From: a virus
Taxonomy: Duplodnaviria > Heunggongvirae > Uroviricota > Caudoviricetes
Virus record (IMG/VR): IMGVR_UViG_2728369181_000005
DNA length: 55,128 nucleotides
Reading direction: 5' to 3' (one strand)
Part shown: positions 15,510-46,814 of the stretch, piece by piece
How positions within the stretch are numbered: the stretch's first letter is position 1
Layout of the letters: each line of letters begins with the position of its first letter
Made by a program: the position numbers and the translations under genes
Notes under the pieces: model-generated
Seen by the model: only the letters and a program-made list of their open reading frames with translations
What the model was told of the DNA's origin: nothing
The model's database searches: none

Positions 15510-15594
15510 AGTCAGAGATAACAATCGACTAATACTGTTTTGTTGTTTTTTGCTTTTAATTGGAGTTCTGGCCTGATTTTTGTGGAGTAAGTTG

Positions 15595-20889: not shown

Positions 20890-20960
20890 GATCCAACAGG
20901 TTACGGGGCGGCGACCTCGCGGGTTTTCGCTATTTATGAAAATTTTCCGGTTTAAGGCGT
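20890..20960. other. Prophage cos site (cosN 12-nt cohesive end at 20906-20917)
   Basis: CAGGTTACG|GGGCGGCGACCT|CGCGGGTTTTCGCTATTTATGAAAATTTTCCGG matches the lambda cohesive-end region, directly upstream of nu1. Confidence 0.9.
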
Positions 20961-21640: not shown

Positions 21641-25332
<3,692 letters not shown>

Positions 25333-25352
<20 letters not shown>

Positions 25353-26650
25353 TCTCCCGCATATTGCCAGCATGGCCTTTAATGAGCCGCTGATGCTTGA
25401 ACCCGCCTATGCGCGGGTTTTCTTTTGTGCGCTTGCAGGCCAGCTTGGGATCAGCCGCCTGACGGATGCGGTGTCCGGCGACAGCCTGACTGCCCAGGAG
25501 GCACCCGCGACGCTGGCATTATCCGGTGATGATGACGGACCACGACAGGCCCGCAGTTATCAGGTCATGAACGGCATCGCCGTGCTGCCGGTGTCCGGCA
25601 CGCTGGTCAGCCGGACGCGGGCGCTGCAGCCGTACTCGGGGATGACCGGTTACAACGGCATTATCGCCCGTCTGCAACAGGCTGCCAGCGACCCGATGGT
25701 GGACGGCATTCTGCTCGATATGGACACACCGGGCGGAATGGTGGCGGGAGCATTTGACTGCGCTGACATCATCGCCCGTGTGCGTGACATAAAGCCGGTA
25801 TGGGCGCTGGCCAACGACATGAACTGCAGTGCAGGTCAGCTGCTTGCCAGTGCCGCCTCCCGACGTCTGGTCACGCAGACCGCCCGGACAGGCTCCATCG
25901 GCGTCATGATGGCTCACAGTAATTACGGCGCTGCGCTGGAGAAACAGGGCGTGGAAATCACGCTGATTTACAGCGGCAGCCATAAGGTGGATGGCAACCC
26001 CTACAGCCATCTACCGGATGATGTCCGGGAAACACTGCAGTCCCGGATGGATGCAACCCGCCGGATGTTTGCACAGAAGGTGTCGGCATATACCGGCCTG
26101 TCCGTGCAGGCTGTGCTGGATACCGAGGCTGCAGTGTACCGCGGTCAGGAGGCCATTAATGCCGGACTGGCTGATGAACTTGTTAACAGCACCGATGCGA
26201 TCACCGTCATGCGTGATGCGCTGGATGCACGTAAATCCCGTCTCTCAGGAGGGCGAATGACCAAAGAGACTCAATCAACAACTGTTTCAGCCACTGCTTT
26301 GCAGGCTGACGTTACTGACGTGGTGCCAGCGACGGAGGGTGAAAACGCCAGCGCGGCGCAGCCGGACGTGAACGCGCAGATCACCGCAGCGGTTGCGGCA
26401 GAAAACAGCCGCATTATGGGGATCCTCAACTGTGAGGAGGCTCACGGACGCGAAGAACAGGCTCGCGTGCTGGCAGAAACTCCCGGTATGACCGTGGAAA
26501 CGGCCCGNNNNNNNNNNNNNNNNNNNNNNNNNNNNNNNNNNNNNNNNGTGACACTGCGCTGGATCGTCTGATGCAGGGGGCACCGGCACCGCTGGCTGCA
26601 GGTAACCCGGCATCTGATGCCGTTAACGATTTGCTGAACACACCAGTGTA
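25333..26650 (+). CDS. C: Head protease/scaffold protein C (Nu3 nested in frame)
   Basis: GTG start at 25333 (VTAELRNLPHIASMAF...) as in lambda C; N-run 26508-26547 inside; true stop TAA 26648-26650. Confidence 0.9.
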
Positions 26651-27048: not shown

Positions 27049-27293
27049 ATGTCGATGTTCACAACCGCCCAGCTGCTGGCGGCAAATGAGCAGAAATTTA
27101 AGTTTGATCCGCTGTTTCTGCGTCTCTTTTTCCGTGAAAGCTATCCCTTCACCACGGAGAAAGTCTATCTCTCACAAATTCCGGGACTGGTAAACATGGC
27201 GCTGTACGTTTCGCCGATTGTTTCCGGTGAGGTTATCCGCTCCCGTGGCGGCTCTACCTCCGAATTTACGCCGGGATATGTCAAGCCGAAGCA
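27049..27293 (+). pseudogene. E: Major capsid protein E, N-terminal fragment (gene split by island insertion)
   Basis: MSMFTTAQLLAANEQKFKFD...GYVKPKH matches the lambda gpE N-terminus, then reads into island DNA and stops at 27324. Confidence 0.9.
27284..27293. repeat. Left copy of 10-bp insertion core AGCCGAAGCA (attL core)
   Basis: Identical 10-mer at 38017-38026; the flanking bases differ, and joining the outer flanks restores a continuous E reading frame (VKPKHEVN). Confidence 0.8.
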
Positions 27294-27402
27294 CTTAGCA
27301 TGGCTTTCTGAGGCTTTCGTGTAGTTGCTGGTTTTTACACTTAATCTTTTGATAATAAAGAGTAAGTTTATCTGGCGCTTTCACTGGATTTTCCTCGTTA
27401 TC

Positions 27403-27441
27403 TGTGTGTTGCAATCATCTCTGTATTGCAGCTTGTATTGC
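27403..27441. repeat. TGT(A/G)TTGCA direct repeats at island left end (candidate integrase arm sites)
   Basis: TGTGTTGCAA, TGTATTGCAG, TGTATTGC within 39 bp just upstream of the island int start; same motif at 37920-37940. Confidence 0.5.
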
Positions 27442-27456
27442 TTTTTGGGGCTAAAA

Positions 27457-28692
27457 ATGGCTGGCGAGAACAAACTGAGCGACAAAGCACTTAAAGGATA
27501 TCTGGGGAAACCTAGAGAAAAGCAGATCACCATTGCTGATGGAAAGGGGCTTTCTATTCGTGTGAGTACCAAGGGGGCTGTGAGCTTTGTTTTCTTCTAC
27601 AGGTTAGCAGGTGGCCGGGCTGCTCCGGTCTGGCTAACGTTGGGTAAATATCCTGATATGTCACTCAAACAGGCAAGGGAAAAGCGCGACGAGTGCCGTG
27701 GTTGGTTGGCTGACAAACGTGATCCGCGTATTCAGATTAAGATTCAGGCTGAAGAACGCTTAAAGCCGGTCACAGTGGAGGATGCACTAAATTACTGGTA
27801 TGAAAATTACTGTAAGGTGCGTCGTAAAACTCATGCTGTAACGCTTGGCAGATTTCGAAAGCATATCTTTCCCTATATCGGTCATTTGCCCGTAAATGAC
27901 ACTCACCTATATGAATGGCTGGACTGTTTTGACCGAATTAAACGTAATGCACCAGTTATGGCGGCGTATGTTTTTTCTGACACTAAATTAGCTCTTCGTT
28001 TTTGTCGGGTACGCCAGTACGCGACGTGTGATGCTTTAAAGGATTTGCGCATGAGTGATGTGGGGCAGATTGCAGGTAAGCGGGATCGGGTTCTGGATGA
28101 AGCCGAACTGGGCCAGCTCTGGAAGGCAATTTTTGTCGAGCCTGATTTAAAACTAATGTCTGAATACACGCGAAAAATGTTTGTGCTTTGTACAGTATTT
28201 GGATGTCGAATGAGTGAAGCCCGATTATCAGAATGGAGCGAATGGGATCTAGAAAGTTGGGTTTGGACTGTACCGAAAGATCACTCAAAAACTGGTGTTG
28301 AAATTGTCAGGCCAGTACCTGAAATTCTACGGCAGTGGGTAACGGATGTTCACGAAGAGACAAAACATACTGGTTATGTGCTGGGAAGTCTGCGAATTAG
28401 AGAAAGCGTAAGCAAGATTGGGGGGAAAATCGGTAAACGTTTGGGCCATGAAAAACAATGGTCACTACACGACCTTAGAAGAACGCTATCTACTCATCTA
28501 AGTGATCTCGGTGTTGAATTTTATGTAGTAGAACAACTGTTAGGCCATGCGCTACCTGGCGTGGCAGGTGTTTACAACCGGAGTAAGTTTATGGCTAAAA
28601 AACTGGATGCTCTGGAACTCTGGACTACATATCTCAATAGCATCGCAGCTGCTGATTCAAAAGTGACAATCCTCAAACAAAAGGCTGGTTAG
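27457..28692 (+). CDS. int: Tyrosine integrase (P4-like family) of the island
   Basis: Start MAGENKLSDKALKGYLGKP...; C-terminal catalytic region with HDLRRT...LGH...Y; first gene at island left end. Confidence 0.88.
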   Translation: MAGENKLSDKALKGYLGKPREKQITIADGKGLSIRVSTKGAVSFVFFYRLAGGRAAPVWLTLGKYPDMSLKQAREKRDECRGWLADKRDPRIQIKIQAEERLKPVTVEDALNYWYENYCKVRRKTHAVTLGRFRKHIFPYIGHLPVNDTHLYEWLDCFDRIKRNAPVMAAYVFSDTKLALRFCRVRQYATCDALKDLRMSDVGQIAGKRDRVLDEAELGQLWKAIFVEPDLKLMSEYTRKMFVLCTVFGCRMSEARLSEWSEWDLESWVWTVPKDHSKTGVEIVRPVPEILRQWVTDVHEETKHTGYVLGSLRIRESVSKIGGKIGKRLGHEKQWSLHDLRRTLSTHLSDLGVEFYVVEQLLGHALPGVAGVYNRSKFMAKKLDALELWTTYLNSIAAADSKVTILKQKAG

Positions 28693-28693
28693 C

Positions 28694-28915
28694 ATGAAAA
28701 AAATGGCAATTGTTGATAAAAAGGGGCTGGAGTACATTCCTAACATTGACCGAATGATCCGTGAGAAAGAATGTCGGGAGCTAACCACTCTTGCGAACAG
28801 CACACGCTGGAAGCTTGAAAAGGAGGGGAAATTCCCCAAGCGAATCAAAATCGGATCTACGGCGGTGGCTTATAGACTCTCTGAGATTCAAGCTTGGATA
28901 AGAGGTGAATGGTAA
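28694..28915 (+). CDS. AlpA-family transcriptional regulator / excisionase-like
   Basis: 73 aa with AlpA-type HTH; directly follows the integrase. Confidence 0.7.
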   Translation: MKKMAIVDKKGLEYIPNIDRMIREKECRELTTLANSTRWKLEKEGKFPKRIKIGSTAVAYRLSEIQAWIRGEW

Positions 28916-28941
28916 GTTAGGGAGGTATTCCTCCCTATATC

Positions 28942-29625
28942 TTACAGGAAATTTTTTAAATCAGGGTTTTTTCCAAATGCGCTCTTATAATATACTGTTG
29001 CAATCTCGTTAAAAATAGTTTTTATATCATCGGTAACCACTATTGTTGCTACGCGCAAATCTTTTTGATATTCATTTAAATCTGGAGGGGTATAGTCCAA
29101 TAGCGTTGATTTATCCAAGATTAAATGTTCTAACATGGCATAGCGCTCAATCAATGTTTTATAAAAATGATATTGATTTTCACTGTTAGCATGTGCACAG
29201 TTTATTGCAAGTAAATACGTTATTTCATTATCTAGATGTGCACGGACAAGGCTTGTATAGGTTTTTTTACGATCTAGATCAAAGGGATGGTATCCAGCAT
29301 TTTCATCAATGAACTTCAATAGATGATATAATATTCTGAAGTAGCTTCCAAAAACAGCATCATGATTGTGCATCAGTGTATTAGTGTCTTTTAAAGAAAC
29401 CAATCCATTCATCATTTTATTAATTAACTCTGAGTAATTTGATTTTTTTCTAAGATCATTTAGAGCATTGTTATGTTGAGATAACATGAGAGAAAATGTT
29501 GATTCAAAAGATGATTGCTTTTTAGCAATTAATGCAACTAACACTGCTGTGCAAGTCCCGAGTGCCACGAAGAAATTTATAATGTTTGATGCAGTGAATA
29601 CAGCATCGTCAGGAGTTGGAGTCAT
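28942..29625 (-). CDS. Hypothetical AT-rich membrane-anchored protein (candidate accessory/defence gene)
   Basis: 227 aa; N-terminal hydrophobic helix FFVALGTCTAVLVALIA; very AT-rich; follows the small regulator at 29658-29852 on the same strand. Confidence 0.45.
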   Translation of the reverse strand: MTPTPDDAVFTASNIINFFVALGTCTAVLVALIAKKQSSFESTFSLMLSQHNNALNDLRKKSNYSELINKMMNGLVSLKDTNTLMHNHDAVFGSYFRILYHLLKFIDENAGYHPFDLDRKKTYTSLVRAHLDNEITYLLAINCAHANSENQYHFYKTLIERYAMLEHLILDKSTLLDYTPPDLNEYQKDLRVATIVVTDDIKTIFNEIATVYYKSAFGKNPDLKNFL

Positions 29626-29657
29626 TTGAATATCCTATTCAATAAAAATTAAAAAAA

Positions 29658-29852
29658 TTAGCCTTTAGGTTCTATACCTTTACGGCGAAGCTCAGCACGA
29701 ACTAATTCTTTAATCCAATTGGCCAAGCTCATTCCTTCCTGAGCTGCTGATTCAGCCATCTGTTCTTTGAGTTCAGGATTGATTCGGATCTGAAACGCAG
29801 GGGCTTTGCCGGCTCCTTTTGGCTGCTTATCTCTTTGAATTGTAGTTGACAT
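29658..29852 (-). CDS. Small ribbon-helix-helix-like DNA-binding protein
   Basis: 64 aa; FQIRINPELKEQMAESAAQEGMSLANWIKELV fits an RHH (Arc/CopG-like) pattern. Confidence 0.45.
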   Translation of the reverse strand: MSTTIQRDKQPKGAGKAPAFQIRINPELKEQMAESAAQEGMSLANWIKELVRAELRRKGIEPKG

Positions 29853-29988
29853 GTGTGTACCTATTGCTTAGCATCAGTGTTGAATAGGTACACACATTAA
29901 CATGATGTTATACCTATAAACAACGCCCTAGGGTGCTCGCAACACACCTAGGGCGTCTAACCACAAACCGTTAACTGGAGTAACGACT

Positions 29989-30354
29989 ATGGCTGGAACA
30001 CAGCATACCCAAACTCACCCTAAATTTATATACATCTTTCTGGCGCTACATCGCGATCGCATAGCAGATGGAGCAACTACGGTACATGTAGCCGCTGACA
30101 CGCTGGTTGATGCGCGCAAGATGGTTAAGGAGATGGGCTATACTGCGGCTTTCTGGAAAGGGCGGGAAGAAAACACGCTGTTTATTCAGAAATGTGAAAA
30201 CAATTTCATCTGGCGTTTTATCGCCCTGAGTACGGCACAACCGCGCGTGATTACCATCGAGGCCACCAGCGAACAGGAAGCCCGCCAGCAATCCCCAACT
30301 GGCTGCGTGATGATATTCGCCGCCCGTATTCGTCAGGAGGTGTGCCATGAATGA
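29989..30354 (+). CDS. Hypothetical protein (possibly Icd-like)
   Basis: 121-codon ORF at the start of the island rightward operon; Icd-like assignment is from memory and weak. Confidence 0.3.
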   Translation: MAGTQHTQTHPKFIYIFLALHRDRIADGATTVHVAADTLVDARKMVKEMGYTAAFWKGREENTLFIQKCENNFIWRFIALSTAQPRVITIEATSEQEARQQSPTGCVMIFAARIRQEVCHE

Positions 30355-30571
30355 TCTTTATTTTAAAGTGCTGACACATGCTGAAAACGCGCTCGTTTGT
30401 GGCAAAAATATGCGAGAAATCTTATCAACCTGGCTTGATGGGACAACAAATGCGGAACACGATGAACGGGATGCTAATTTAGCTGGAGCGTTAATTACGT
30501 TACTTGATCCTGTCATCAAAGAGTTGGATGAAGCTATAAAAATACACGACCAGAGCTATACCGGAGAATAA
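30347..30571 (+). CDS. Hypothetical protein
   Basis: 74-codon ORF overlapping neighbours. Confidence 0.35.
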   Translation: MNDLYFKVLTHAENALVCGKNMREILSTWLDGTTNAEHDERDANLAGALITLLDPVIKELDEAIKIHDQSYTGE

Positions 30572-30574
30572 AAA

Positions 30575-30862
30575 ATGAAAAATAAATTTTCTGGCTTTAT
30601 TGCCAGCGGTCAAACTCATTCAAAAATCAGCCTTGGGGATATTTTCAAAGACAGCTATGGCTATCGGGTAAAGATTATTTCGGTTGATGATCGTCGTGTC
30701 TCTTATTTGCGTGATGGTTATGATTTTGAATGTGTTATGCCGCGTCAGCAGTTCGAAAGAGATTTCATTCTGGTAAAAAATTGCAAGACAGATAATCAGA
30801 GGCGTGCCGCAGGCTATATCCGTAAAATTCGGGCAATGTTAGTTGCCGGAGGTAACAAATGA
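30575..30862 (+). CDS. Hypothetical protein
   Basis: 95-codon ORF; ATGA overlap with the primase gene. Confidence 0.35.
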   Translation: MKNKFSGFIASGQTHSKISLGDIFKDSYGYRVKIISVDDRRVSYLRDGYDFECVMPRQQFERDFILVKNCKTDNQRRAAGYIRKIRAMLVAGGNK

Positions 30863-32679
30863 AACGTGCTCCGAACTTAAAATACCAACCGCGCGACAAA
30901 ATGACGGAAGTCATCATTTTTGCTGGCAGTGATGCCTGGAGCCATGCAAAAGAATGGAATGAATGGGCAGGTAAGCATATTGCAGCAGATGATACACCAC
31001 CAGTCATTCTGGGTACGGAACAACTGGAAAACCTGGATGATATGCAAATTATCGATGAAGGCCGTCATTATGTGCGTGTTTATCGTGCCGGAAAGATTGC
31101 AGAGAAAAGTCTGACGAAGGTTGCGACATTACTTGCTATTGCAGGCGTAAAGGAAGCACGTTGTTACCGTAGCTTTGTTGATCGAGAGCCTGAAGACTGG
31201 ACTCCGCGCCTTGTCGGCCTAAAAGCTGAAGCGGAGCATGGGGAAAGTCTGGTGATTGAACTGCCAGTGAAGAAGGCAGAGCGCAAAAATGACGAGCGTG
31301 CTTCATCTTTGGCGTTGAATCAGATGGGGGCCAGCCAGCGCGGTGAAGTTCTCCTTGCACATTACGGCGGCGAACTGGCAATCAATGCCGACTCTGACAC
31401 CGTTCATCATTACAACGGCGTTGTATGGGAGCCGGTTCAGGATAAAGAGTTACAGCGTGCTATGGCGCAGATTTTCATTGATGCGGAGATCAGCTATTCG
31501 CAGAACGCTATTAAATCGGCGGTAGATACCATGAAGTTAAGTTTGCCTGTAATGGGGAATACAGCCCGTAACCTGATTGGATTCAGTAACGGGGTATTTG
31601 ATACCAGAACTGGTAATTTTCGGGAGCATAACAAAAACGACTGGTTGTTAATTGCCAGTGAATTACCTTTCAGCCCACCAGCAGAGGGGGAAACGCTGGC
31701 AACACATGCGCCGAATTTCTGGAAGTGGTTGCGCCGTTCGGTGGCTGATAATGACCGCAAGGCAGATCGCGTACTGGCGGCATTATTCATGGTGCTGGCG
31801 AACCGGTACGACTGGCAGTTATTCATTGAGGTAACAGGGCCGGGGGGAAGTGGTAAAAGTGTGATGGCGGAGATTTGCACCATGCTGGCGGGTAAGGCGA
31901 ATACAGTATCAGCAAGCATGAAGGCGCTGGAAGATGCAAGGGAACGTGCGTTAGTGGTTGGCTTTTCGCTGATTATCATGCCGGATATGACCCGCTACGC
32001 TGGTGATGGGGCAGGGATTAAGGCCATTACAGGCGGTGACAAGGTGGCAATTGACCCGAAACACAAAGCCCCCTATTCAACGCGTATTCCGGCAGTAGTG
32101 CTGGCGGTTAACAATAACGCCATGTCATTCAGTGACCGCAGCGGGGGGATCTCACGTCGTCGGGTGATATTCAATTTTTCGGAAGTTGTACCGGAGAACG
32201 AACGCGATTCGATGCTGGCGGAAAAAATAGAAGGTGAGCTGGCGGTAGTGATTCGCCATCTGCTTACACGGTTTGCTGATCAGGACGAAGCCAGACGCCT
32301 GTTATATGAGCAGCAGAAATCTGAAGAAGCACTGGCGATAAAGCGAGAGGGGGATTCGCTGGTGGACTTCTGCGGCTATCTCATGGCATCGGTAATGTGT
32401 GATGGCCTGTTAGTGGGTAATGCTGAAATTGTGCCATTCAGCCCACGCAGGTATCTCTATCATGCCTATCTGGCTTATATGAGGGCACATGGGTTTGGTA
32501 AACCTGTAACACTGACGCGCTTCGGTAAAGATATGCCGGGGGCAATGGCGGAATATGGCAGGGAGTATATGAAACGGAAAACGAAGCACGGTTTGCGTTC
32601 AAACGTGACACTGACGGAGGAATCAGAAGACTGGATGCCATCATGTGTATCGGTCACTAATGACGATAGCAAAAATTAA
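30859..32679 (+). CDS. Primase-helicase (P4 alpha-like replication protein)
   Basis: 606 aa; Walker A GPGGSGKS and Walker B-like FSLIIMPDM in the C-terminal half; followed by an iteron array. Confidence 0.85.
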   Translation: MKRAPNLKYQPRDKMTEVIIFAGSDAWSHAKEWNEWAGKHIAADDTPPVILGTEQLENLDDMQIIDEGRHYVRVYRAGKIAEKSLTKVATLLAIAGVKEARCYRSFVDREPEDWTPRLVGLKAEAEHGESLVIELPVKKAERKNDERASSLALNQMGASQRGEVLLAHYGGELAINADSDTVHHYNGVVWEPVQDKELQRAMAQIFIDAEISYSQNAIKSAVDTMKLSLPVMGNTARNLIGFSNGVFDTRTGNFREHNKNDWLLIASELPFSPPAEGETLATHAPNFWKWLRRSVADNDRKADRVLAALFMVLANRYDWQLFIEVTGPGGSGKSVMAEICTMLAGKANTVSASMKALEDARERALVVGFSLIIMPDMTRYAGDGAGIKAITGGDKVAIDPKHKAPYSTRIPAVVLAVNNNAMSFSDRSGGISRRRVIFNFSEVVPENERDSMLAEKIEGELAVVIRHLLTRFADQDEARRLLYEQQKSEEALAIKREGDSLVDFCGYLMASVMCDGLLVGNAEIVPFSPRRYLYHAYLAYMRAHGFGKPVTLTRFGKDMPGAMAEYGREYMKRKTKHGLRSNVTLTEESEDWMPSCVSVTNDDSKN

Positions 32680-32690
32680 ACTTATGGAAT

Positions 32691-32916
32691 AACTGTTCAC
32701 CACTGTTCACCCTGTCATAAATATCTTTTATATCAGTATATTATAGGGTGAACAGTTATTTATGAACTGTTCACCAAACTATTCACTGTTCACCTTTTTG
32801 ATTGTTTATTGAGCTTCAAGGGTGAACAGTGGTGAACAGTTGGTGAATAGTTTTTGTGAAACTGTTCACCCATTAACATTATGAATTAAAAGAGAAAATA
32901 TCAAAAGGTGAACAGG
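32691..32916. repeat. Island replication-origin iterons
   Basis: About ten copies of ACTGTTCACC / GGTGAACAGT in both orientations immediately after the primase stop. Confidence 0.8.
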
Positions 32917-32966
32917 TGAAGGGTTAAAACGCAAAAATTTTAATTTACTGCTGTGAGATAAAGCCT

Positions 32967-33212
32967 ATGACAGCGAAGCACACAAAAAAATCACAATCGC
33001 ACGCCCTTGATTTGACGGAACACTGGTTAAGGGTGTCGATAAAAATCATCGACCGCAACGCCGGGGAAGGATACGCGAAAGCACATCCCGAACTGATTAG
33101 CGCATTCATGACAACGGCGGCTGCAAACTTTGCCACTCTGACCGAACGGGAGATTGCTGAAGCGGAGGAAGTGACAACAATCAATATTAAGTCCGGAGAG
33201 CAGGCAGCATGA
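32967..33212 (+). CDS. Hypothetical protein
   Basis: 81-codon ORF after the iteron array. Confidence 0.35.
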   Translation: MTAKHTKKSQSHALDLTEHWLRVSIKIIDRNAGEGYAKAHPELISAFMTTAAANFATLTEREIAEAEEVTTINIKSGEQAA

Positions 33213-33658
33213 CGGCGCAAATATCAGTTTACGGGCGGTTGGTGGACGACCCGCAGACAAAACAGACCAGCAAGGGCACCCCCATGACGCTGGCGCGTAT
33301 GGCGGTATCACTGCCCTGCAGTCAGTCGGATGACGGTCAGGCGACGATGTGGTTATCTGTCCTGGCGTTTGGCAGACAAGCCGACGCACTGGCAAAGCAT
33401 CACAAAGGCGAACTCCTGAGCGTGGCGGGTAACATGCAGATGAGCCAGTGGACTGGACAGAACGGCGAAACGCGGCAGGGCTGGCAGGTTATCGCAGACA
33501 GCGTAATCAGTGCGCGATCGGTGCGACCGGGCGGCAAAAAAGGCCAACAGGGGCAGGCTACTGACGCACTGAACAGAGCAAAACAACAGGCAGATCAGCA
33601 AGGAAGCCAGCCACCAGTGGGAGATAATGAGCAATGGGGAGATGATATCCCGTTTTAA
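33209..33658 (+). CDS. Single-stranded DNA-binding protein (SSB-like)
   Basis: N-terminal OB-fold pattern ISVYGRLVDDP...ARMAVSL...WLSVLAFG; Gln/Gly-rich tail ending DDIPF. Confidence 0.7.
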   Translation: MTAQISVYGRLVDDPQTKQTSKGTPMTLARMAVSLPCSQSDDGQATMWLSVLAFGRQADALAKHHKGELLSVAGNMQMSQWTGQNGETRQGWQVIADSVISARSVRPGGKKGQQGQATDALNRAKQQADQQGSQPPVGDNEQWGDDIPF

Positions 33659-33875
33659 ATATTGCCAATAAAAAAAGGCCGGAAAAAATAAATTTTCCGG
33701 CATGCTACATAAATCCCGACCAAAGGGAGTGAAGATATTAACACTAATTGTCCGCACTGAAGTTGTCACCCCAAAACTTTATACAACATTGCACTTGGTT
33801 GCATGTGTTCGCATGACAAATATCGGTGGTAGCATATATCCACAATTATTTTTAATGAATGCAAAGAGGATGCGT

Positions 33876-34916
33876 ATGGTTGATTTATATTCGCCTACTC
33901 AGCTTGTACAGGTGGTTAATGCTGTAGATGTACAAAAACAACTAAATGCGTTGTTTACCAGTTTGTTTTTTACTCGCTCGGTAATGTTTGAATCGCGCGA
34001 TATTATTCTTGATACAATCGACGATCCAAATATCCCAATTGCAGCGTTTTGTTCTCCTATGGTGGGTAGTAAAGTTTCACGTGACGAAGGGTACGAATCA
34101 AAAACAATTCGTCCAGGCTATATGAAGCCGAAAAGCAGCATTGATCCAAATAAGTTAGCTGTGCGCCCTGCTGGTGTATCACCTGAGCAATACAATGCTT
34201 TTGGGGCGCGTAATATTAAAGTTAAACAGGCGATTGTAAATCAAGCTAAAGCTATTCGTGCACGTATTGAATGGCTTGCTGTTCAGGCAATCACAACGGG
34301 GAAAAATATCATTGAGGGCGATGGTATTGAACGTTATGAGCTGGACTGGAATATTAAACCACAAAATATCATCACTCAGTCTGGCGGTGCTGAGTGGTCA
34401 GGTAAGGATAAAGAAACTTTTGATCCAAATGATTATATTGAGAGCTACGCAGAATTTAGTGAGGGCGTCACTAATATTATCATTATGGGCGGTAATGTAT
34501 GGAAGAAATACCGTTCATTCAGAGCAATAAAAGAGGCTCTGGATACCCGTCGTGGTTCTAATTCCGAACTGGAAACGGCCCTTAAAGACCTTGGTGATTC
34601 GGTGAGTTTTAAAGGGTATATGGGCGATGTTGCGATTGTTGTTTACAGCGGGCGTTATACCGACGAGGACGGAACAGAAAAACATTTCCTTGATCCTGAT
34701 TTGATGGTGCTTGGCAATACGGCTCTTCAGGGGATTGTCGCCTATGGCGGTGTTCAGGATCCGGAGCTAATCCGAATGGGGCTGACTAAAGCCGAACTTG
34801 CACCGAAAAACTATATTGTGCCTGGTGATCCGGCTATTGAATATGTGCAGACACATTCAGCACCACAGCCAATACCGGCCCGCATCAATCGTTTTGTTAC
34901 CGTTCGCATTGGCTAA
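33876..34916 (+). CDS. Island-encoded major capsid protein (lambda gpE-like)
   Basis: AAGAGGA SD before ATG 33876; aligns with lambda E (GYMKPK vs GYVKPK; ITQSGGAEWSGKDKETFDPNDYIESYA; DTRRGSNSELETA; GDVAIVVYSG). Confidence 0.8.
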   Translation: MVDLYSPTQLVQVVNAVDVQKQLNALFTSLFFTRSVMFESRDIILDTIDDPNIPIAAFCSPMVGSKVSRDEGYESKTIRPGYMKPKSSIDPNKLAVRPAGVSPEQYNAFGARNIKVKQAIVNQAKAIRARIEWLAVQAITTGKNIIEGDGIERYELDWNIKPQNIITQSGGAEWSGKDKETFDPNDYIESYAEFSEGVTNIIIMGGNVWKKYRSFRAIKEALDTRRGSNSELETALKDLGDSVSFKGYMGDVAIVVYSGRYTDEDGTEKHFLDPDLMVLGNTALQGIVAYGGVQDPELIRMGLTKAELAPKNYIVPGDPAIEYVQTHSAPQPIPARINRFVTVRIG

Positions 34917-34925
34917 GGGGGAGCA

Positions 34926-35267
34926 ATGGCTACTCATTACACTGAACTCATGGCTGGCACTGAAGCACTGGTGACTACGCTGGGGATATTTTCAGCTAAT
35001 AAAGGGGTAATTCCTGCATTTACGCCACTGATGCAGGAAGATGCAACAGGTGCACTGGTGGTATGGGATGGTTCGAGCGTAGGTAAAGCGGTTTATGTTT
35101 CCGCTGTACAAATCGACACCGCGAAAAAAACACAGGCTCAGGTCTATAAGACAGGTGTCTTAAATGTTGATGCTCTGAACTGGCCTGAGTCTGTTAAAGA
35201 ACTGTCAGTAAAGGTTGCAGCGTTTGTTGGCTCAGGTATTTCTGTTCAGCCGCTGGCTCGTGTGTAA
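34926..35267 (+). CDS. Island-encoded decoration protein (lambda gpD-like)
   Basis: 113 aa; LVVWDGSSVGKAV parallels lambda [14 protein letters not shown]; same length class. Confidence 0.6.
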   Translation: MATHYTELMAGTEALVTTLGIFSANKGVIPAFTPLMQEDATGALVVWDGSSVGKAVYVSAVQIDTAKKTQAQVYKTGVLNVDALNWPESVKELSVKVAAFVGSGISVQPLARV

Positions 35268-35278
35268 AGGGGGATACA

Positions 35279-35662
35279 ATGCAGAATGATTACAATGACC
35301 TTAAGCCAATTGCCGAAATGATGTACCCGAATCCAGCTGTAGAGGAATTAAAAGCTATCGCTGACAAAATGTGTTTAAGCGAGCGCCTTGTTGATATGAA
35401 TCAGGTGATGGAAATTACAACCCTGAGTCGTCGTACACTGCTAAACCTTGAGGCTAGTGGAGAGTTCCCGGAGCGTGTGCAGGTTACGGAAGGGCGTAAG
35501 GCCTGGTATTTAAGTGAAGTGATCGACTGGATAAATAATATTCCTCGCGCTTCTGAATATTGCCGCGTACCTGTCCCAAAAAAGCCAGATGCGGCGCTAT
35601 GCCTCAAGATTGAGCGTGTACGCCGCAATGCACGGGATGGTCGCTATAAGCTGATTGGTTGA
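35279..35662 (+). CDS. AlpA-type HTH domain protein (possible packaging/regulatory factor)
   Basis: 127 aa; C-terminal half carries an AlpA-like HTH (MNQVMEITTLSRRTLLNLEASGEFPERV). Confidence 0.5.
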   Translation: MQNDYNDLKPIAEMMYPNPAVEELKAIADKMCLSERLVDMNQVMEITTLSRRTLLNLEASGEFPERVQVTEGRKAWYLSEVIDWINNIPRASEYCRVPVPKKPDAALCLKIERVRRNARDGRYKLIG

Positions 35663-35689
35663 TGAAATTAGGGCCCGCTCTGGCTGGCG

Positions 35690-35770
35690 GGTCCTTTCCG
35701 GTGATCCAGAACGTTACGGGGCGTCAGGCGCGCGGGTTTTCGCTATTTATGAGCATTTTAAGGGGACTGG
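35690..35770. other. Island cos-like site with divergent cosN core (35718-35729)
   Basis: GGTCCTTTCCGGTGATCCAGAACGTTACG|GGGCGTCAGGCG|CGCGGGTTTTCGCTATTTATGA: flanks match the prophage cos, the 12-nt core differs at about five positions. Confidence 0.7.
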
Positions 35771-35878
35771 TGGTGGTTTTGTTGTTCGCTATATCTGTAT
35801 GAATAATAAGAGAAAAATACAATCAATACACCAACCTGAAACAGTAATTAAGTTGTGGTATCAATGAAATTACACCTG

Positions 35879-36406
35879 ATGAACAAAAAAAACATGGCAA
35901 AAAGTTGCCGTGTAAGCGCCACTGCGTTCGATAAGTGGGGAGTGATTCCCGTCGAGCGTAAGGGCCGTGAGGCGTTCTATGATGTTGCCAGTGTAATAGA
36001 TAATCGGGTTAACAATGCAATCAGCCAGATTACAAACGAAACGGGCGATATTGATGACGATGAACTTTTACGCGTCAGGATCAGATTACTGACAGCACAG
36101 GCAGAGGCGCAGGAGCTTAAAAACGAGCGCGAACGCGGCGACGTTATTGATACAGAGTTTTGTATGTATGTTCTTTCCAAACTGGCGAGTCAGATTTCAT
36201 CTATCATGGACAGCCTGCCGCTTACCATGCAAAGGCGCTTCCCACAGATGACTCCGGCTATGCTGGATGGACTTAAAAAGGAAGTGGCTAAAGCCTGTAA
36301 TGCCAGTGCCGGCGTTGCTGACAACCTCCCACAGATACTGGCTGATTATCTGATGGAAAGTACAGGAAACGTACCGGATAAGTTGCAGCTGAATAAGGAT
36401 AAGTAA
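35879..36406 (+). CDS. Island small terminase (Nu1-like, diverged)
   Basis: Aligns with lambda Nu1 (VIPVERKGREAFYDV vs MPVLRGGGKGNEVLYD; AQAEAQELKNERERGDVIDTEFC vs AQADAQELKNARDSAEVVETAFC); start codon choice (35864/35879/35894) uncertain. Confidence 0.7.
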   Translation: MNKKNMAKSCRVSATAFDKWGVIPVERKGREAFYDVASVIDNRVNNAISQITNETGDIDDDELLRVRIRLLTAQAEAQELKNERERGDVIDTEFCMYVLSKLASQISSIMDSLPLTMQRRFPQMTPAMLDGLKKEVAKACNASAGVADNLPQILADYLMESTGNVPDKLQLNKDK

Positions 36407-36417
36407 CGTAGTACGCT

Positions 36418-36693
36418 ATGACTGAATCCGAACTACTGAAAGTAATCTGCCATGCTGGTGGAGTCAGCCACCAGCATGACGAACAGGCCACGCAGCCGGG
36501 CAGTGTCACCGCTGAAAATTACGCTCGTGTGGTTGCTGAGGTTATGTGGCGTGACGGTATAGAACTGAACGGACAGGATTGCTTAGTCATCCGCACCAAA
36601 GTGCTGGCTATACTGGCAGCTAGGCGGAGGCAGGGACAACGCCAGAACGTTGCATCGTACCAGTGGAAGAAGCCTGACAGACTGCGGCGATAA
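36418..36693 (+). CDS. Hypothetical protein
   Basis: 91-codon ORF following the TerS-like gene. Confidence 0.35.
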   Translation: MTESELLKVICHAGGVSHQHDEQATQPGSVTAENYARVVAEVMWRDGIELNGQDCLVIRTKVLAILAARRRQGQRQNVASYQWKKPDRLRR

Positions 36694-37095
36694 CTCTTTG
36701 ATTTTCTCGACGGCCCCAAAATGGGCCTTACCATAGCCAGCTAATAAATGAGCAAGCCTCAAAAGTGAGGTTTGTGGCCGTTTGGCCTATTCATATGCTA
36801 ACTCGTTGATATTCCTGACGACGCAAATTTACGCCTTGTGGCTGGTAGTCGAATTGCAAATTTGCAACTCGACTATGAAACTACAGGTAGTTTGGGTAGT
36901 AAAAGCAACACACTGATTTTGGGGCTTCTTCGCGATACCTAATATTATGGTATCGGTGGAAGAGATATCGTTTCTCATAGGTTAGCACCGAGGGCGGAGT
37001 TCCGCCCTCATCGAAAAATTGCTTACGAGTCGTCAAAATAAATTAATCGACTGAGTATAATGATTAACTAATTGCTCGTGTTACTTCATTATACG

Positions 37096-37857
37096 TTATT
37101 TCCCATCTTTAAGGTTTAACCAAGTGTTAATTAAAAAAAGAGCCATTGAGCCTGATAAATTTACTGCAAGTTCGGCATGCCTTGGGGATGGCTTAATTGA
37201 TGAGCTGTTCGTTCCATGTGCATCACCGAGTTTATTACGAAGAGTACCTAACCCATTTACAACTGCAGAACAACCGCCGAGAATTTGTTTGAAGATATTT
37301 TCAGTATGTTGGTCGGCAGATAGGTTAAGTTCTTTTGAAAGAGTTTTATAAAGCTCTGACATTTCAATATTTTTATTATTATACTGAATGCCCATATCAT
37401 CAAGAATGTGTTTGCAAACTGTTTCAAGAAGTGTTCTTGCGGAGGTTATCGCACCATCCGGATCTGTATGGCGCCGTTCAAGTGCTTTTATCCAAACGGC
37501 GTGGACTCCATCCTCGTTAAACTTTCTTAATACATCAGATATGTCTTCATCCGCTGGAGCTTTATTTTTCCCTTCTAGATAGTCCAGCATCGGCTGAAAT
37601 GCCTTATAAATCAAATCTCTCCGGGGGGCATACTTTTCAGTCTTTTTTATAAATCCCCAAAATTCTTTTAGTGAGCGATTAGTTCTCACAAACTCTGGTA
37701 ATAGCTGATGTAAAGGAGGATTTTGTAAGAAATATGTTCTTAGAAGCAAATAATCATTATTAGCTTCATCCTGGGCTCCTGTAGCTCTTGCAATTAGTAT
37801 GTTTTGAAGCGCTACTGCGCGCTCTAGGTCATTTTGAAGGGTATCTATAATATTCAT
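37096..37857 (-). CDS. Abortive-infection-like protein (Abi_C/HEPN-type motif)
   Basis: 253 aa, AT-rich, opposite strand at the island right end; C-terminal GTLRNKLGDAHG (R-x6-H) matches the Abi_C/HEPN signature as recalled. Confidence 0.6.
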   Translation of the reverse strand: MNIIDTLQNDLERAVALQNILIARATGAQDEANNDYLLLRTYFLQNPPLHQLLPEFVRTNRSLKEFWGFIKKTEKYAPRRDLIYKAFQPMLDYLEGKNKAPADEDISDVLRKFNEDGVHAVWIKALERRHTDPDGAITSARTLLETVCKHILDDMGIQYNNKNIEMSELYKTLSKELNLSADQHTENIFKQILGGCSAVVNGLGTLRNKLGDAHGTNSSSIKPSPRHAELAVNLSGSMALFLINTWLNLKDGK

Positions 37858-37919
37858 AACAAATCTTTATTCACTTCATTTGTGGGTTGATAATTGAATG
37901 GTTTGTACATTGATTTCTG

Positions 37920-37940
37920 TGTATTGCAGTGTGTATTGCA
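37920..37940. repeat. TGTATTGCA direct repeats at island right end
   Basis: TGTATTGCAG and TGTATTGCA, same orientation as the left-end copies. Confidence 0.5.
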
Positions 37941-38016
37941 ACATAGCCATTCAGGTAGAGATTATGCTCTATTTTTCCTCTTATATCATTCACATACTTA
38001 CACCATTGACTCATGT

Positions 38017-38026
38017 AGCCGAAGCA
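38017..38026. repeat. Right copy of 10-bp insertion core AGCCGAAGCA (attR core)
   Basis: Identical to 27284-27293. Confidence 0.8.
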
Positions 38027-38807
38027 TGAGGTGAATCCGCAGATGACCCTGCGTCGCCTGCCGGATGAAGATCCACAGAATCTGGCGGATCCGGCTTACC
38101 GTCGCCGTCGCATCATCATGCAGAACATGCGTGACGAAGAGCTGGCCATTGCCCAGGTCGAAGAGATGCAGGCAGTTTCTGCCGTGCTTAAGGGCAAATA
38201 CACCATGACCGGTGAAGCCTTCGATCCGGTTGAGGTGGATATGGGCCGCAGTGCGGCGAACAACATCACGCAGTCCGGCGGTACGGAGTGGAGCAAGCGT
38301 GACAAGTCCACGTATGACCCGACCGACGATATCGAAGCCTACGCGCTGAACGCCAGCGGTGTGGTGAATATCATCGTGTTCGATCCGAAAGGCTGGGCGC
38401 TGTTCCGTTCCTTCAAAGCCGTCAGGGAGAAGCTGGATACCCGTCGCGGCTCTCATTCTGAGCTGGAGACAGCGGTGAAAGACCTGGGTAAAGCGGTGTC
38501 CTATAAGGGGATGTATGGCGATGTGGCCATCGTCGTGTATTCCGGACAGTACGTGGAAAACGGTGTCAAAAAGAACTTCCTGCCGGACAACACGATGGTG
38601 CTTGGGAACACTCAGGCACGCGGTCTGCGCACCTATGGCTGTATTCAGGATGCGGATGCATTGAGTGAGGGTATTAATGCGTCTCCCCGTTATCCGAAAA
38701 ACTGGAAGACATCCGGCGATCCGGCGCGTGAGTTCACCATGATTCAGTCAGCACCGCTGATGCTGCTGGCTGATCCTGATGAGTTCGTGTCCGTACAACT
38801 GGCGTAA
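38020..38807 (+). pseudogene. E: Major capsid protein E, C-terminal fragment
   Basis: PKHEVNPQMTLRRLPDEDPQNL... to ...DEFVSVQLA matches lambda gpE from residue ~83 onward; no start of its own. Confidence 0.9.
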
Positions 38808-42193: not shown

Positions 42194-44776
42194 ACCGGTA
42201 GGCGATCTGGTCGTTGATTTGAGTCTGGATGCGGCCAGATTTGACGAGCAGATGGCCAGAGTCAGGCGTCATTTTTCCGGTACGGAAAGTGATGCGAAAA
42301 AAACAGCGGCAGTCGTTGAACAGTCGCTGAGCCGACAGGCGCTGGCTGCACAGAAAGCGGGGATTTCCGTCGGGCAGTATAAAGCCGCCATGCGTATGCT
42401 GCCTGCACAGTTCACCGACGTGGCCACGCAGCTTGCAGGCGGGCAAAGTCCGTGGCTGATCCTGCTGCAACAGGGTGGTCAGGTTAAGGACTCCTTCGGC
42501 GGGATGATCCCCATGTTCCGGGGGCTTGCCGGTGCGATCACCCTGCCGATGGTGGGGGCCACCTCGCTGGCGGTGGCGACCGGTGCGCTGGCGTATGCCT
42601 GGTATCAGGGCAACTCAACCCTGTCCGATTTCAACAAAACGCTGGTCCTTTCCGGCAATCAGGCGGGACTGACGGCAGATCGTATGCTGGTCCTGTCCAG
42701 AGCCGGGCAGGCGGCAGGGCTGACGTTTAACCAGACCAGCGAGTCACTCAGCGCACTGGTCAAGGCGGGGGTAAGCGGTGAGGCTCAGATTGCGTCCATC
42801 AGCCAGAGTGTGGCGCGTTTCTCCTCTGTATCCGGCGTGGAGGTGGACAAGGTCGCTGAAGCCTTCGGGAAGCTGACCACAGACCCGACGTCGGGGCTGA
42901 CGGCGATGGCACGCCAGTTCCATAACGTGACGGCGGAGCAGATTGCGTATGTTGCTCAGTTGCAGCGTTCCGGCGATGAAGCCGGGGCATTGCAGGCGGC
43001 GAACGAGGCCGCAACGAAGGGGTTTGATGACCAGACCCGCCGCCTGAAAGAGAACATGGGCACGCTGGAGACCTGGGCAGAGAGGACAGCGCGGGCATTC
43101 AAATCCATGTGGGATGCGGTGCTGGATATTGGTCGTCCTGATACCGCGCAGGAGATGCTGATTAAGGCAGAGGCTGCGTTTAAGAAAGCAGACGACATCT
43201 GGAATCTGCGCAAGGATGATTATTTTGTTAACGATGAAGCGCGGGCGCGTTACTGGGATGATCGTGAAAAGGCCCGTCTTGCGCTTGAAGCCGCCCGAAA
43301 GAAGGCTGAGCAGCAGACTCAACAGGACAAAAATGCGCAGCAGCAGAGCGATACCGAAGCGTCACGGCTGAAATATACCGAAGAGGCGCAGAAGGCTTAC
43401 GAACGGCTGCAGACGCCGCTGGAGAAATATACCGCCCGTCAGGAAGAACTGAACAAGGCACTGAAAGACGGGAAAATCCTGCAGGCGGATTACAACACGC
43501 TGATGGCGGCGGCGAAAAAGGATTATGAAGCGACGCTGAAAAAGCCGAAACAGTCCGGCGTGAAGGTGTCTGCGGGCGATCGTCAGGAAGACAGTGCTCA
43601 TGCTGCCCTGCTGACGCTTCAGGCAGAACTCCGGACGCTGGAGAAGCATGCCGGAGCGAATGAGAAAATCAGCCAGCAGCGCCGGGATTTGTGGAAGGCG
43701 GAGAGTCAGTTCGCGGTACTGGAGGAGGCGGCGCAACGTCGCCAGCTGTCTGCACAGGAGAAATCCCTGCTGGCGCATAAAGATGAGACGCTGGAGTACA
43801 AACGCCAGCTGGCTGCACTTGGCGACAAGGTCACCTATCAGGAGCGCCTGAACGCGCTGGCGCAGCAGGCGGATAAATTCGCACAGCAGCAACAGGCAAA
43901 ACGGGCCGCCATTGATGCGAAAAGCCGGGGGCTGACTGACCGGCAGGCAGAACGGGAAGCCACGGAACAGCGCCTGAAGGAACAGTATGGCGATAATCCG
44001 CTGGCGCTGAATAACGTCATGTCAGAGCAGAAAAAGACCTGGGCGGCTGAAGACCAGCTTCGCGGGAGCTGGATGGCAGGCCTGAAGTCCGGCTGGAGTG
44101 AGTGGGAAGAGAGCGCCACGGACAGTATGTCGCAGGTTAAAAGTGCAGCCACGCAGACCTTTGATGGTATTGCACAGAATATGGCGGCGATGCTGACCGG
44201 CAGTGAGCAGAACTGGCGCAGCTTCACCCGTTCCGTACTGTCCATGATGACAGAAATTCTGCTTAAGCAGGCAATGGTGGGGATTGTCGGGAGTATCGGC
44301 AGCGCCATTGGCGGGGCTGTTGGTGGCGGCGCATCCGCGTCAGGCGGAACAGCCATTCAGGCAACTGCGGCGNNNNNNNNNNNNNNNNNNNNNNNNNNNN
44401 NNNNNNNNNNTTTGCGACCGGGGGATTTACGGGAACCGGCGGCAAATATGAGCCAGCGGGGATTGTTCACCGTGGTGAGTTTGTCTTCACGAAGGAGGCA
44501 ACCAGCCGGATTGGCGTGGGGAATCTCTACCGGCTGATGCGCGGCTATGCCACCGGTGGTTATGTCGGTACACCGGGCAGTCTGGCTGACAGCCGGTCGC
44601 AGGCGTCCGGGACGTTTGAGCAGAATAACCATGTGGTGATTAACAACGACGGCACGAACGGGCAGATAGGTCCGGCTGCTCTGAAGGCGGTGTATGACAT
44701 GGCCCGCAAGGGTGCCCGTGATGAAATTCAGACACAGATGCGTGATGGTGGCCTGTTCTCCGGAGGTGGACGATGA
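42186..44776 (+). CDS. H: Tape measure protein H (interrupted by an assembly gap)
   Basis: Long coiled-coil protein matching lambda gpH; N-run 44373-44410 breaks the apparent frame; C-terminus continues to 44776. Confidence 0.9.
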
Positions 44777-45804: not shown

Positions 45805-46548
45805 ATGACAGAGACAGAATCAGCGATTCTGGCGCACGCCCGGCGATGTGCGCCAGCGGAGTCGTGCGGCTTCGTGGTAAGCACGCCGGAGGGGGAAAGA
45901 TATTTTCCCTGCGTGAATATTTCCGGTGAGCCGGAGGATTATTTCCGGATGGCTCCGGAGGACTGGCTGCAGGCCAAAATGCAGGGTGAGATTGTGGCGC
46001 TGGTCCACAGTCACCCCGGTGGTCTGCCCTGGCTGAGTGAGGCCGACCGGCGGCTGCAGGTGCAGAGTGATTTGCCGTGGTGGCTGGTCTGCCGGGGGAC
46101 GATTCATAAGTTCCGCTGTGTGCCGCATCTCACCGGGCGGCGCTTTGAGCACGGGGTGACGGACTGTTACACGCTGTTCCGGGATGCTTATCATCTGGCG
46201 GGGATTGAGATGCCGGATTTTCATCGCGAGGATGACTGGTGGCGTCACGGTCAGAATCTCTATCTGGATAATCTGGAGGCCACAGGGCTGTATCAGGTGC
46301 CGTTGTCATCAGCACAACCGGGCGATGTGCTGCTGTGCTGTTTTGGTTCATCGGTGCCGAATCATGCCGCCATTTACTGTGGTGATGGCGAGCTGCTGCA
46401 CCATATTCCTGAACAACTGAGCAAACGAGAGAGGTATACCGACAAATGGCAGCGACGCACACACTCCCTCTGGCGTCACCGGGCATGGCGCGCATCTGCC
46501 TTTACGGGGATTTGCAACGATTTGGCCGCCGCATCGACCTTCGTGTGA
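45805..46548 (+). CDS. K: Tail assembly protein K (JAB/NlpC-P60 type)
   Basis: MTETESAILAHARRCAPAESCGFVV... matches lambda gpK. Confidence 0.9.
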   Translation: MTETESAILAHARRCAPAESCGFVVSTPEGERYFPCVNISGEPEDYFRMAPEDWLQAKMQGEIVALVHSHPGGLPWLSEADRRLQVQSDLPWWLVCRGTIHKFRCVPHLTGRRFEHGVTDCYTLFRDAYHLAGIEMPDFHREDDWWRHGQNLYLDNLEATGLYQVPLSSAQPGDVLLCCFGSSVPNHAAIYCGDGELLHHIPEQLSKRERYTDKWQRRTHSLWRHRAWRASAFTGICNDLAAASTFV

Positions 46549-46814
46549 AAACGGGGGCTGAAGCCATCCGCGCACTGGCCACACAGCTCCCGGTGTTTCG
46601 TCAGAAACTGAGCGACGGCTGGTATCAGGTACGGATTGCCGGGCGGGACGTCAGCACGTCCGGGTTAACGGCGCAGTTACATGAGACTCTGCCTGATGGC
46701 GCTGTGATTCATATTGTTCCCAGAGTCGCCGGGGCCAAGTCAGGTGGCGTATTCCAGATTGTCCTGGGGGCTGCCGCCATTGCCGGATCATTCTTTACCG
46801 CCGGAGGGATTTGA
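46446..46814 (+). pseudogene. I: Tail assembly protein I, truncated after ~121 residues
   Basis: Matches lambda gpI up to ...AIAGSFFTAG, then reads GI-stop where J-homologous sequence begins in another frame. Confidence 0.6.

Follow-up and report, generated by a model that had tools for sequence, protein, structure and literature searches.

An 11capE-type satellite island in the capsid gene E of an icd-type lambdoid prophage: very probable membership in a published helper-embedded class

How does a 10.7-kb insert come to lie within the major capsid gene of a lambda-like prophage, and what kind of element is it? The question is raised by IMG/VR virus record IMGVR_UViG_2728369181_000005, a stretch of 55,128 nucleotides (the window, meaning here the whole length that was analyzed), in which such an insert divides the lambda-type gene E. 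A first-pass annotation had read the insert as a satellite or phage-inducible chromosomal island (PICI), and this reading is borne out by site-specific att junctions, by gene content, and by 97-99% identity to Eco567.11capE (11capE below). The latter is an 11-kb island of E. coli NRG857c, carried in gene E, the capsid gene, of a lambdoid prophage at icd (Tommasini, Mageeney and Williams 2023, NAR Genom Bioinform, PMC10111431). We conclude that the insert is very probably one of the helper-embedded PICIs (HE-PICIs) of the 11capE family, belonging to site group E:Phage_cap_E:80 and lodged in an icd-type lambdoid prophage. The arrangement is already known, the class having been described, named, and partly characterized experimentally in 2023. 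The first-pass annotation was right to place a satellite in a prophage capsid gene and wrong to think this unusual, as E:Phage_cap_E:80 is the commonest site of the published class, with 201 instances (PMC10111431).

The helper E was located by tblastn with lambda late proteins as queries. Residues 1-82 of lambda E match 27049-27294 at 98.8% identity, and residues 80-341 match 38019-38804 at 96.6%. The 5' fragment, codons 1-82 (27049..27293, + strand, also in the list of open reading frames [ORFs]), reads into nine island codons and stops at 27324, and the 3' fragment, codons 83-341 plus the stop, occupies 38027..38807 (+ strand), which places the interruption at codon 82/83. Both junctions contain the 10-bp block AGCCGAAGCA, as attL at 27284..27293 and as attR at 38017..38026 (both + strand), the core lying within codons 79-82. 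The left junction reads GGATATGTCA-AGCCGAAGCA-CTTAGCATGG, or at greater length CCGGGATATGTCA-AGCCGAAGCA-CTTAGCATGGC, and the right junction reads CTCATGT-AGCCGAAGCA-TGAGGTGAATCCG, or GACTCATGT-AGCCGAAGCA-TGAGGTGAATCCGCAG. A 10-mer count of the window sequence finds these two copies and none besides; 100 shuffles of the 55-kb window give an expectation of 0.14 copies, and in none of the 100 are two copies reached. Joining 27293 to 38027 yields a single open E frame, a scarless removal after which attB would read GGATATGTCA-AGCCGAAGCA-TGAGGTGAATCC. The junction sequences, the tblastn matches, and the joined frame thus agree with the earlier claims that the insert splits a lambda-type E and that its precise removal restores the gene. 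The 10-bp core that had been called duplicated does stand at both ends, but it represents the stretch of identity between attL and attR that goes with a tyrosine recombinase and not a target-site duplication. Supplementary File 1 of PMC10111431 gives this very block for dozens of E_Phage_cap_E_80 elements.

If the insert arrived by site-specific recombination, empty counterparts of the site can be sought, as the first-pass annotation had proposed for other lambda-like prophages. At 95-99.8% identity, an 800-bp reconstruction of the uninterrupted E site runs through without a break in no fewer than 3158 of the 5426 complete E. coli genomes surveyed, and it is contiguous in 86 phage records too; the core is present in lambda itself (nt 6370), and up to five lambda-type E copies occur per E. 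coli genome. In genomes with the empty site, alignments of a junction-spanning query end exactly at 27293. With empty sites so abundant, the arrangement is not a fixed one that lacks an empty counterpart. The occupied junction, sought with 300 bp across attL and a match over at least 80% of the query length, is found in 173 of the 5426 genomes, and at least 80% of the whole island, full-length and co-linear, in 40. The closest copies, including that of strain AST216, are 99.6% identical. The AST216 host prophage lies at the argU tRNA-Arg (DLP12) site, the integrase of the window prophage is 100% identical to integrases that adjoin icd, and the two prophages are different mosaics; one island genotype is therefore found in the E genes of different prophages. 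Helpers of the listed E_Phage_cap_E_80 elements likewise lie at icd, tRNA-Arg, proP, ybhC, and other loci, and the elements come from E. coli, Salmonella, Enterobacter, Citrobacter, and Pluralibacter (PMC10111431 supplement).

These counts also dispose of an assembly artefact, in which a prophage contig and an island contig would have been fused into a chimera, as the first-pass annotation had cautioned. Five N runs in the window do show imperfect or masked sequence. However, none of them lies in or adjoins the island, the attL junction recurs in complete genomes of unrelated strains and hosts, and the class has the catalogued instances cited above. We give an artefact practically no credence, and regard it as already refuted by the 40 full-length matches and the 173 genomes with the junction.

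The genes of the island were called with Pfam, PHROGs, and PADLOC together with the RefSeq annotation of a 99.6% identical copy. They follow the zone order int-alpA, small regulators, pri-ori-ssb, and late zone; int, alpA, pri, the major capsid gene, and terS are all on the + strand, co-oriented with the helper late operon, and all island ORFs are full length in comparison with the AST216 and NRG857c copies. The tyrosine integrase (27457..28692, + strand) combines Arm-DNA-bind_3, a P4-type arm domain, with Phage_integrase, and is followed by an AlpA-family regulator/excisionase (28694..28915, + strand; Pfam Phage_AlpA, 1.4e-15). A scan predicted no + strand terminator between the 5' part of E and int. 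Beyond the first variable cargo slot, which is discussed below, lie genes for an Icd-like protein (29989-30354, + strand) and for a 74-aa hypothetical protein and a DUF4222 protein (30347-30862, + strand), which at 29989..30862 take the position of the 'Bro zone' of Gram-negative PICIs. The primase-helicase (30859..32679, + strand; D5_N, DUF5906, Pox_D5) is 99.7% identical to that of 11capE, and just 3' of its gene a replication origin extends over 32693..32915, where the iteron CTGTTCACC recurs ten times and in either orientation; the iteron has just one further exact copy elsewhere in the window. An 81-aa hypothetical protein (32967-33212, + strand) and a single-stranded DNA-binding protein (SSB) recognized by Pfam (33209-33658, + strand) complete the replication zone.

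The late zone opens with a satellite major capsid protein of the lambda E family (33876..34916, + strand; Pfam Phage_cap_E, 6.7e-40; 41% to helper E by BLASTP) and a head decoration protein of the lambda D family (34926..35267, + strand; HDPD, 5e-15; 39% identical to helper D). Helper E is indeed interrupted, as the first-pass annotation had stated, but its description of the prophage as capsid-defective until excision needs qualifying, as the satellite brings E and D homologues of its own. Among the 50,697 phage genomes screened, the best match to the satellite E homologue is likewise at 41%, and the lack of any closer phage relative points to an old satellite lineage rather than a recent capture. 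At the position of the att core, the satellite's own capsid gene matches 7 of 10 bases and its 3' side diverges, which fits the avoidance of self-integration remarked on in PMC10111431. The same paper cites the capsid gene as dispensable for transfer in the model PICI EcCICFT073. Next comes a second AlpA-family protein (35279..35662, + strand), a winged helix-turn-helix (wHTH) protein of 127 aa.

The satellite cos site (35689..35752, + strand) is a cosQ/cosN-like stretch, 84% identical to the helper cos over 64 bp. Alignment of the helper cos region to the island places the satellite cohesive-end sequence GGGCGTCAGGCG at 35719-35730 (+ strand). It differs at 5 of 12 positions from the lambda-type cosN cohesive end of the helper, GGGCGGCGACCT (20906..20917, + strand), with positions 2 and 11 unchanged; in the mutational literature on lambda cosN, these two positions matter for nicking, and we mention this as a lead only. 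The variant is kept in four independent island copies (the window, AST216, NRG857c 11capE, and the metagenome contig ORSG01002381 at 4312-4323), and all three helpers examined carry the lambda cohesive-end sequence. A search of the island for lambda cosN with up to two mismatches gave just a chance match inside pri.

Lying 3' of cos, as Nu1 does in lambda, terS encodes a small terminase (TerS) of the Nu1 family (35864..36406, + strand; 180 aa; Pfam Phage_Nu1, 1e-24) that is 36% identical to helper Nu1; 20 of 60 residues agree in the N-terminal DNA-binding part, and 43 of 95 over the remainder. Its best relative in the phage collection is N15 gp1 (47%), and a sequence search of PDB chains returned no match. 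The cos and terS module is present in 73 of the 5426 genomes, and the satellite cos alone in about 228. A 91-aa hypothetical protein (36418..36693, + strand; phrog_1561) follows. The second AlpA-family protein mentioned above lies directly 5' of the satellite cos and is 100% identical to its counterpart in 11capE, an element that is without terS; its sole credible PDB match by sequence is the AlpA structure 8c3t (2e-9), and it might act in late activation or in setting the specificity of packaging.

Two slots of the island are variable. Slot 1 (28942..29852, - strand), a region not common to 11capE, holds an AbiC/AbiP-like protein (28942-29625, - strand; Pfam putAbiC, 2.8e-16; weak PADLOC matches to AbiC/AbiP at 3e-4) and a small ribbon-helix-helix (RHH)/HicB-like protein (29658-29852, - strand). 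Slot 2 holds an Abi_C/AbiJ-like protein (37096..37857, - strand; Pfam Abi_C, 1.3e-23; PADLOC AbiJ, 2.2e-21). The cargo differs between copies, with AbiC-like and AbiJ-like proteins here, HEPN and DUF262 proteins in NRG857c, and a TIR-domain protein in other E. coli copies, and Abi-like genes in variable slots are the usual picture of defense cargo on satellites. Pfam confirmed the genes that the first-pass annotation had listed (integrase, AlpA, primase-helicase, iteron origin, SSB, packaging genes, and Abi-like cargo). That list was incomplete, as it had overlooked the E and D homologues and the cos site, and the Abi-like genes are two.

The attachment region argues for the same class. PMC10111431 reports the HE-PICI-only motif tgTGTATTGCantgTGTATTGCa once on either side of the attP center, at 81 +/- 2 bp on the upstream side and at 132 +/- 2 bp on the downstream side. 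In the window, the motif TGTATTGC-N4-TGTATTGC stands at -81.5 and +131.5 bp of the core center, which is the published spacing: on the P' side, the doubled motif tcTGTATTGCagctTGTATTGCt (27420..27442, + strand), a presumed arm-type site, starts 131.5 bp after the core center, and on the P side the doubled motif tgTGTATTGCagtgTGTATTGCa (37918..37940, + strand) ends 81.5 bp before it. The whole window has 10 copies of TGTATTGC against 2.25 expected. The integrase, at 99.5% amino acid identity to the 11capE integrase over 411 residues, belongs with the E subclade of HE-PICI integrases. The island also has the features of a Gram-negative PICI as set out by Fillol-Salom et al. (2018), namely int, alpA, and pri with an adjacent origin, a length of 10-20 kb, and unidirectional genes, and no tail or lysis families were found among its ORFs by Pfam and PHROGs. 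Every defining feature of an HE-PICI that can be judged at the sequence level is therefore present.

Direct comparison with the type element (NC_017634.1:1199333-1210409) gives 96.9% nucleotide identity over int-alpA and 98.9% from the Icd-like gene through cos; at the protein level, the satellite major capsid protein is 99.4% and the decoration protein 99.1% identical. The two islands share the integration codon in a lambda-type E, their orientation, the distances of the doubled TGTATTGC motif, E and D homologues of their own, and the satellite cosN variant. They differ in the core, which is AACCCAAGCA in 11capE and AGCCGAAGCA here; the two forms are synonymous at the target codons, and the supplement of PMC10111431 lists each of them. 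They differ also in cargo, with AbiC-like and RHH proteins in one slot and TerS, the 91-aa protein, and the AbiJ-like protein in the other here, against a hypothetical protein and YlcI in the first and a 64-aa Nu1 stub, HEPN, and DUF262 in the second in 11capE. Finally, 11capE has a lambda-like cosB and no terS, an absence stated in PMC10111431, whereas in the window island the cosB is unrelated and the Nu1-family protein is full length. A text search of the accessible supplements of that paper gave no Phage_Nu1, Abi_C, or HDPD; one catalogue entry, Eco2071.11, is of matching length at 10,733 bp. In the accessible parts of that paper we did not find a cohesive end private to the satellite, the variant with a full terS, the natural attP contig described next, the tail lesion of the helper, or the lack of close phage relatives for the satellite E and Nu1, and these points may be modest additions. 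The presence of E, D, and Nu1 homologues on the island and of two Abi-like cargo genes may go beyond those parts as well, in minor ways.

An element that excises should leave an attP junction, and we scanned viral, genome, and metagenome contigs for the predicted TTGACTCATGT-AGCCGAAGCA-CTTAGCATGGC. There were no matches in viral contigs and none in genome contigs. The metagenome contigs gave one, ORSG01002381, of 8651 bp and from human gut; there, island sequence corresponding to 31385-38026 is joined through the core AACCCAAGCA to 27286-28912, at 96-97% identity. This contig covers terS and the AbiJ-like cargo and has both doubled motifs at the canonical distances (6511-6770), and its junction is that expected of an excised circle or concatemer. 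Past alpA, from 8238, the contig diverges from the window, with a different cargo in slot 1 again.

The natural attP junction bears on another explanation, in which homologous or illegitimate recombination between two capsid modules produced a mosaic prophage with a captured second set of E, D, and Nu1. Lambdoid prophages are highly mosaic, and the island E, D, and Nu1 homologues together with cos do give homology with the helper late region. We consider this origin highly improbable, as an island E of 41% identity with a 7/10 match at the att core and a divergent 3' side offers too little for homologous exchange, and module exchange does not lead one to expect an exact 10-bp block at both ends, an integrase gene beside attL, scarless removal, arm motifs at fixed distances from the core, or an attP junction existing in nature.

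The window thus records site-specific integration by a tyrosine integrase, with intact att sites and four TGTATTGC half-sites and in co-orientation with the helper late operon. On the HE-PICI reading, the integrase recombined attP with the 10-bp core in helper E codons 79-82, giving attL and attR with the same block. For 11capE, formation of attP and attB has been demonstrated, and mitomycin C treatment led to excision and replication of the whole composite first and to precise excision of the satellite at about 2 h, as followed by quantitative PCR and deep sequencing; that element too is bounded by an attL/attR identity block of 10 bp and includes a capsid gene of its own (PMC10111431). By analogy with this 97-99% identical element, the composite studied here would, after SOS induction, excise and replicate before the satellite leaves about 2 h later and restores E. 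Q-antiterminated late transcription would run from D and the 5' part of E into int-alpA, so that satellite excision would be timed by the helper late phase and helper capsid production delayed, helper E not being made before the satellite excises. Replication of the satellite would be passive at first and would later start at its iteron origin with its own primase. Packaging of its DNA would use the satellite cos, whose cohesive end is specific to the satellite and whose cosB is not that of lambda; the Nu1-family TerS would recognize this site and recruit the helper large terminase (TerL), since the island has no TerL of its own. The satellite E and D homologues may add to, or replace, the helper shell, and the two Abi-like genes may be defense cargo that repays the host for carriage.

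Several points weigh against this account and need to be taken together. The window holds no sign that this very copy excises, replicates, or is packaged. For the satellite TerS, the cosN variant, and the E and D homologues, we infer roles from gene order and homology alone. Coverage of ORSG01002381 is about 2.9x, and its junction could come from a tandem array or concatemer rather than a circle. In the work on 11capE, no particles of the satellite or its helper were recovered (PMC10111431), and the island is in no deposited phage genome, which leaves transfer unproven for the whole family. The only match to island DNA in the 50,697 phage records is a primase at 78% in LR881103.1; this record (Escherichia phage vB_KppS-Ant, 16.5 kb, 'induced prophage') suggests by its size and source a PICI-like satellite deposited as a phage.

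The state of the helper adds a further point. The prophage has a lambda-type int, exo/bet/gam, an S24-type repressor, O/P-type replication genes, Q, lysis genes, the lambda cos, and a lambda-like late operon. Within 46446-50034, however, 608 bp of the lambda sequence (15125 to 15733) are missing; the deletion falls at a 9-bp microhomology, CCGCCGGAG, present in two copies, and its junction is at 46798-46806. This deletion removes the C-terminal 103 codons of I (cut after codon 120) and the first 76 codons of J, and in none of the top matches among complete E. coli genomes is the I-J span deleted. The five N runs, 305 bases in all (23001-23059, 26508-26547, 44373-44410, 46934-46997, and 49881-49984), lie inside the late genes A, C/Nu3, H, and J, two of them in J, and mask the reading frames there. 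Three of the five differ in length from the lambda sequence that they replace, and the runs mimic frameshifts in ORF lists; the frameshifts in A, C/Nu3, and H are apparent only, and the I-J deletion is the sole lesion in real sequence. The helper is probably tail-defective, and the composite would therefore need tails from another lambdoid phage to spread; with the deletion and the masked late genes, it may be unable to make infectious particles by itself.

The tail lesion gives some weight to a different reading, in which the island belongs to the same family and is a stranded passenger in a decaying, tail-defective prophage, having ceased to spread and persisting only as its Abi-like genes and the prophage defense genes benefit the host. 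A real deletion that is absent from the best complete-genome matches, the lack of virion evidence for the family in PMC10111431 and in the phage records, and defense-type cargo on island and prophage alike all fit. We nevertheless think this reading quite unlikely, as Int, AlpA, the att cores, and the four arm half-sites are intact and nearly identical to those of an element seen to excise, and the island ORFs are full length in comparison with AST216 and NRG857c. Moreover, tails are not needed for excision, and another lambdoid prophage in the cell could supply them, given the several lambda-type E copies that one genome may hold.

Other parts of the helper prophage carry features of their own. 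In the early-right region (11781-11963 and 12010-12618), a Bro-N/P22AR-C antirepressor-like gene has isrK (55.9 bits) and C4 antisense RNA (72.7 bits) directly upstream of it; this is a P1/P7-style RNA-controlled module of the helper and not of the satellite. A HipA_2-type kinase of 250 aa and a DUF3037 protein of 280 aa overlap on the - strand (5556-7132), in the interval from the recombination genes to the repressor, possibly as a toxin or defense pair. A general porin gene (Porin_1, 2e-151; 16167-17309, - strand) occupies the classical moron position of lambdoid phages, with Q on one side and the lysis genes on the other. At the right prophage end, a 627-aa protein with an OLD-family ATPase and a TOPRIM nuclease is encoded at 53245-55128 (- strand), and the window stops exactly at its start codon, which puts any partner gene beyond the sequence.

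What the HE-PICIs as a class have brought to the field is a satellite that regulates its helper in cis, interrupting an essential late gene and restoring it by excision, a point made in 2023, and that borrows helper induction, replication, and late transcription. The window island opens no new question. It adds a well-preserved instance, the same genotype in prophages at different chromosomal sites and one natural attP junction, and offers leads on packaging in a private cohesive end, an own small terminase, and E and D lineages without a close phage relative.

Among known satellites, phage P4 resembles the island in its integrase clade (P4-type, with Arm-DNA-bind_3), its AlpA/Vis-like regulator, and its D5-type primase with an adjacent iteron origin, and is unlike it in integrating into tRNA genes and in using P2-type helpers. 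Pfam and PHROGs scans of the island ORFs found no Psu, Sid, Delta, or Epsilon families. Rfam searches at E<=1 found no CI/C4-type immunity RNA in the island beyond sub-threshold noise, and at the gathering threshold gave C4 and isrK only in the prophage early region; such an immunity RNA has been reported for some HE-PICIs. With these families and the immunity RNA missing from the scans, we reject a P4-like satellite. Staphylococcus pathogenicity islands (SaPIs) of the TerS-hijacking type are alike in proposed logic only, a satellite small terminase redirecting the helper large terminase; they use pac (headful) packaging and unrelated proteins.

The full head and packaging set of a capsid-forming PICI (cf-PICI) is made up of TerL, a portal, a protease/scaffold, and connectors between head and tail. 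Among the ORFs of the island, Pfam and PHROGs recognized just E, D, and Nu1 homologues, and the island is not a cf-PICI. It does resemble cf-PICIs (preprint 10.1101/2022.09.08.507074) in having its own major capsid protein and small terminase and in that it would need helper tails. The Gram-negative PICIs of the EcCICFT073/Rpp type are similar in size (about 10-15 kb), in int-alpA-pri-ori order, in having a capsid-gene homologue, in cos packaging by a lambdoid helper, and in a cos followed by a wHTH packaging-specificity gene. They are integrated in the chromosome and act on the helper solely in trans; their Rpp, of 135-154 aa and without the TerL-binding tail, heterodimerizes with helper TerS, and their cosN reportedly differs little from that of the helper (Fillol-Salom et al. 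2019, PMC6739421; Feiss-lab review, PMC9026076). The window island, by contrast, differs from its helper in the cohesive end as given above and has a full-length Nu1 homologue 3' of cos, where Rpp-type PICIs have Rpp. Searches of PDB chains by phmmer with the 127-aa, 91-aa, and 81-aa island proteins found no Rpp homologue, only 8c3t and noise. Judged by sequence search and not by structure, the gene after cos is a Nu1-family TerS, and the island is not an Rpp-type cos PICI (PMC6739421).

A speculation that we regard as unlikely is that the terS-bearing sub-lineage (about 73 of 5426 genomes) is a functional intermediate between Rpp-type and capsid-forming PICIs. It would build shells from its own E and D on the helper portal and scaffold and package by its own TerS with helper TerL at a private cos, and its embedding in E would serve capsid replacement and not just timing. 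If true, helper shell protein would be off for as long as the satellite is embedded, and the private 12-nt end GGGCGTCAGGCG would leave satellite and helper genomes unable to anneal together. For an HE-PICI of the 11capE family, which we take the island to be, the simplest reading of these genes is that recruitment of TerL by TerS would follow the logic of the Rpp-type PICIs (PMC6739421, PMC9026076), reached with a complete TerS instead of Rpp.

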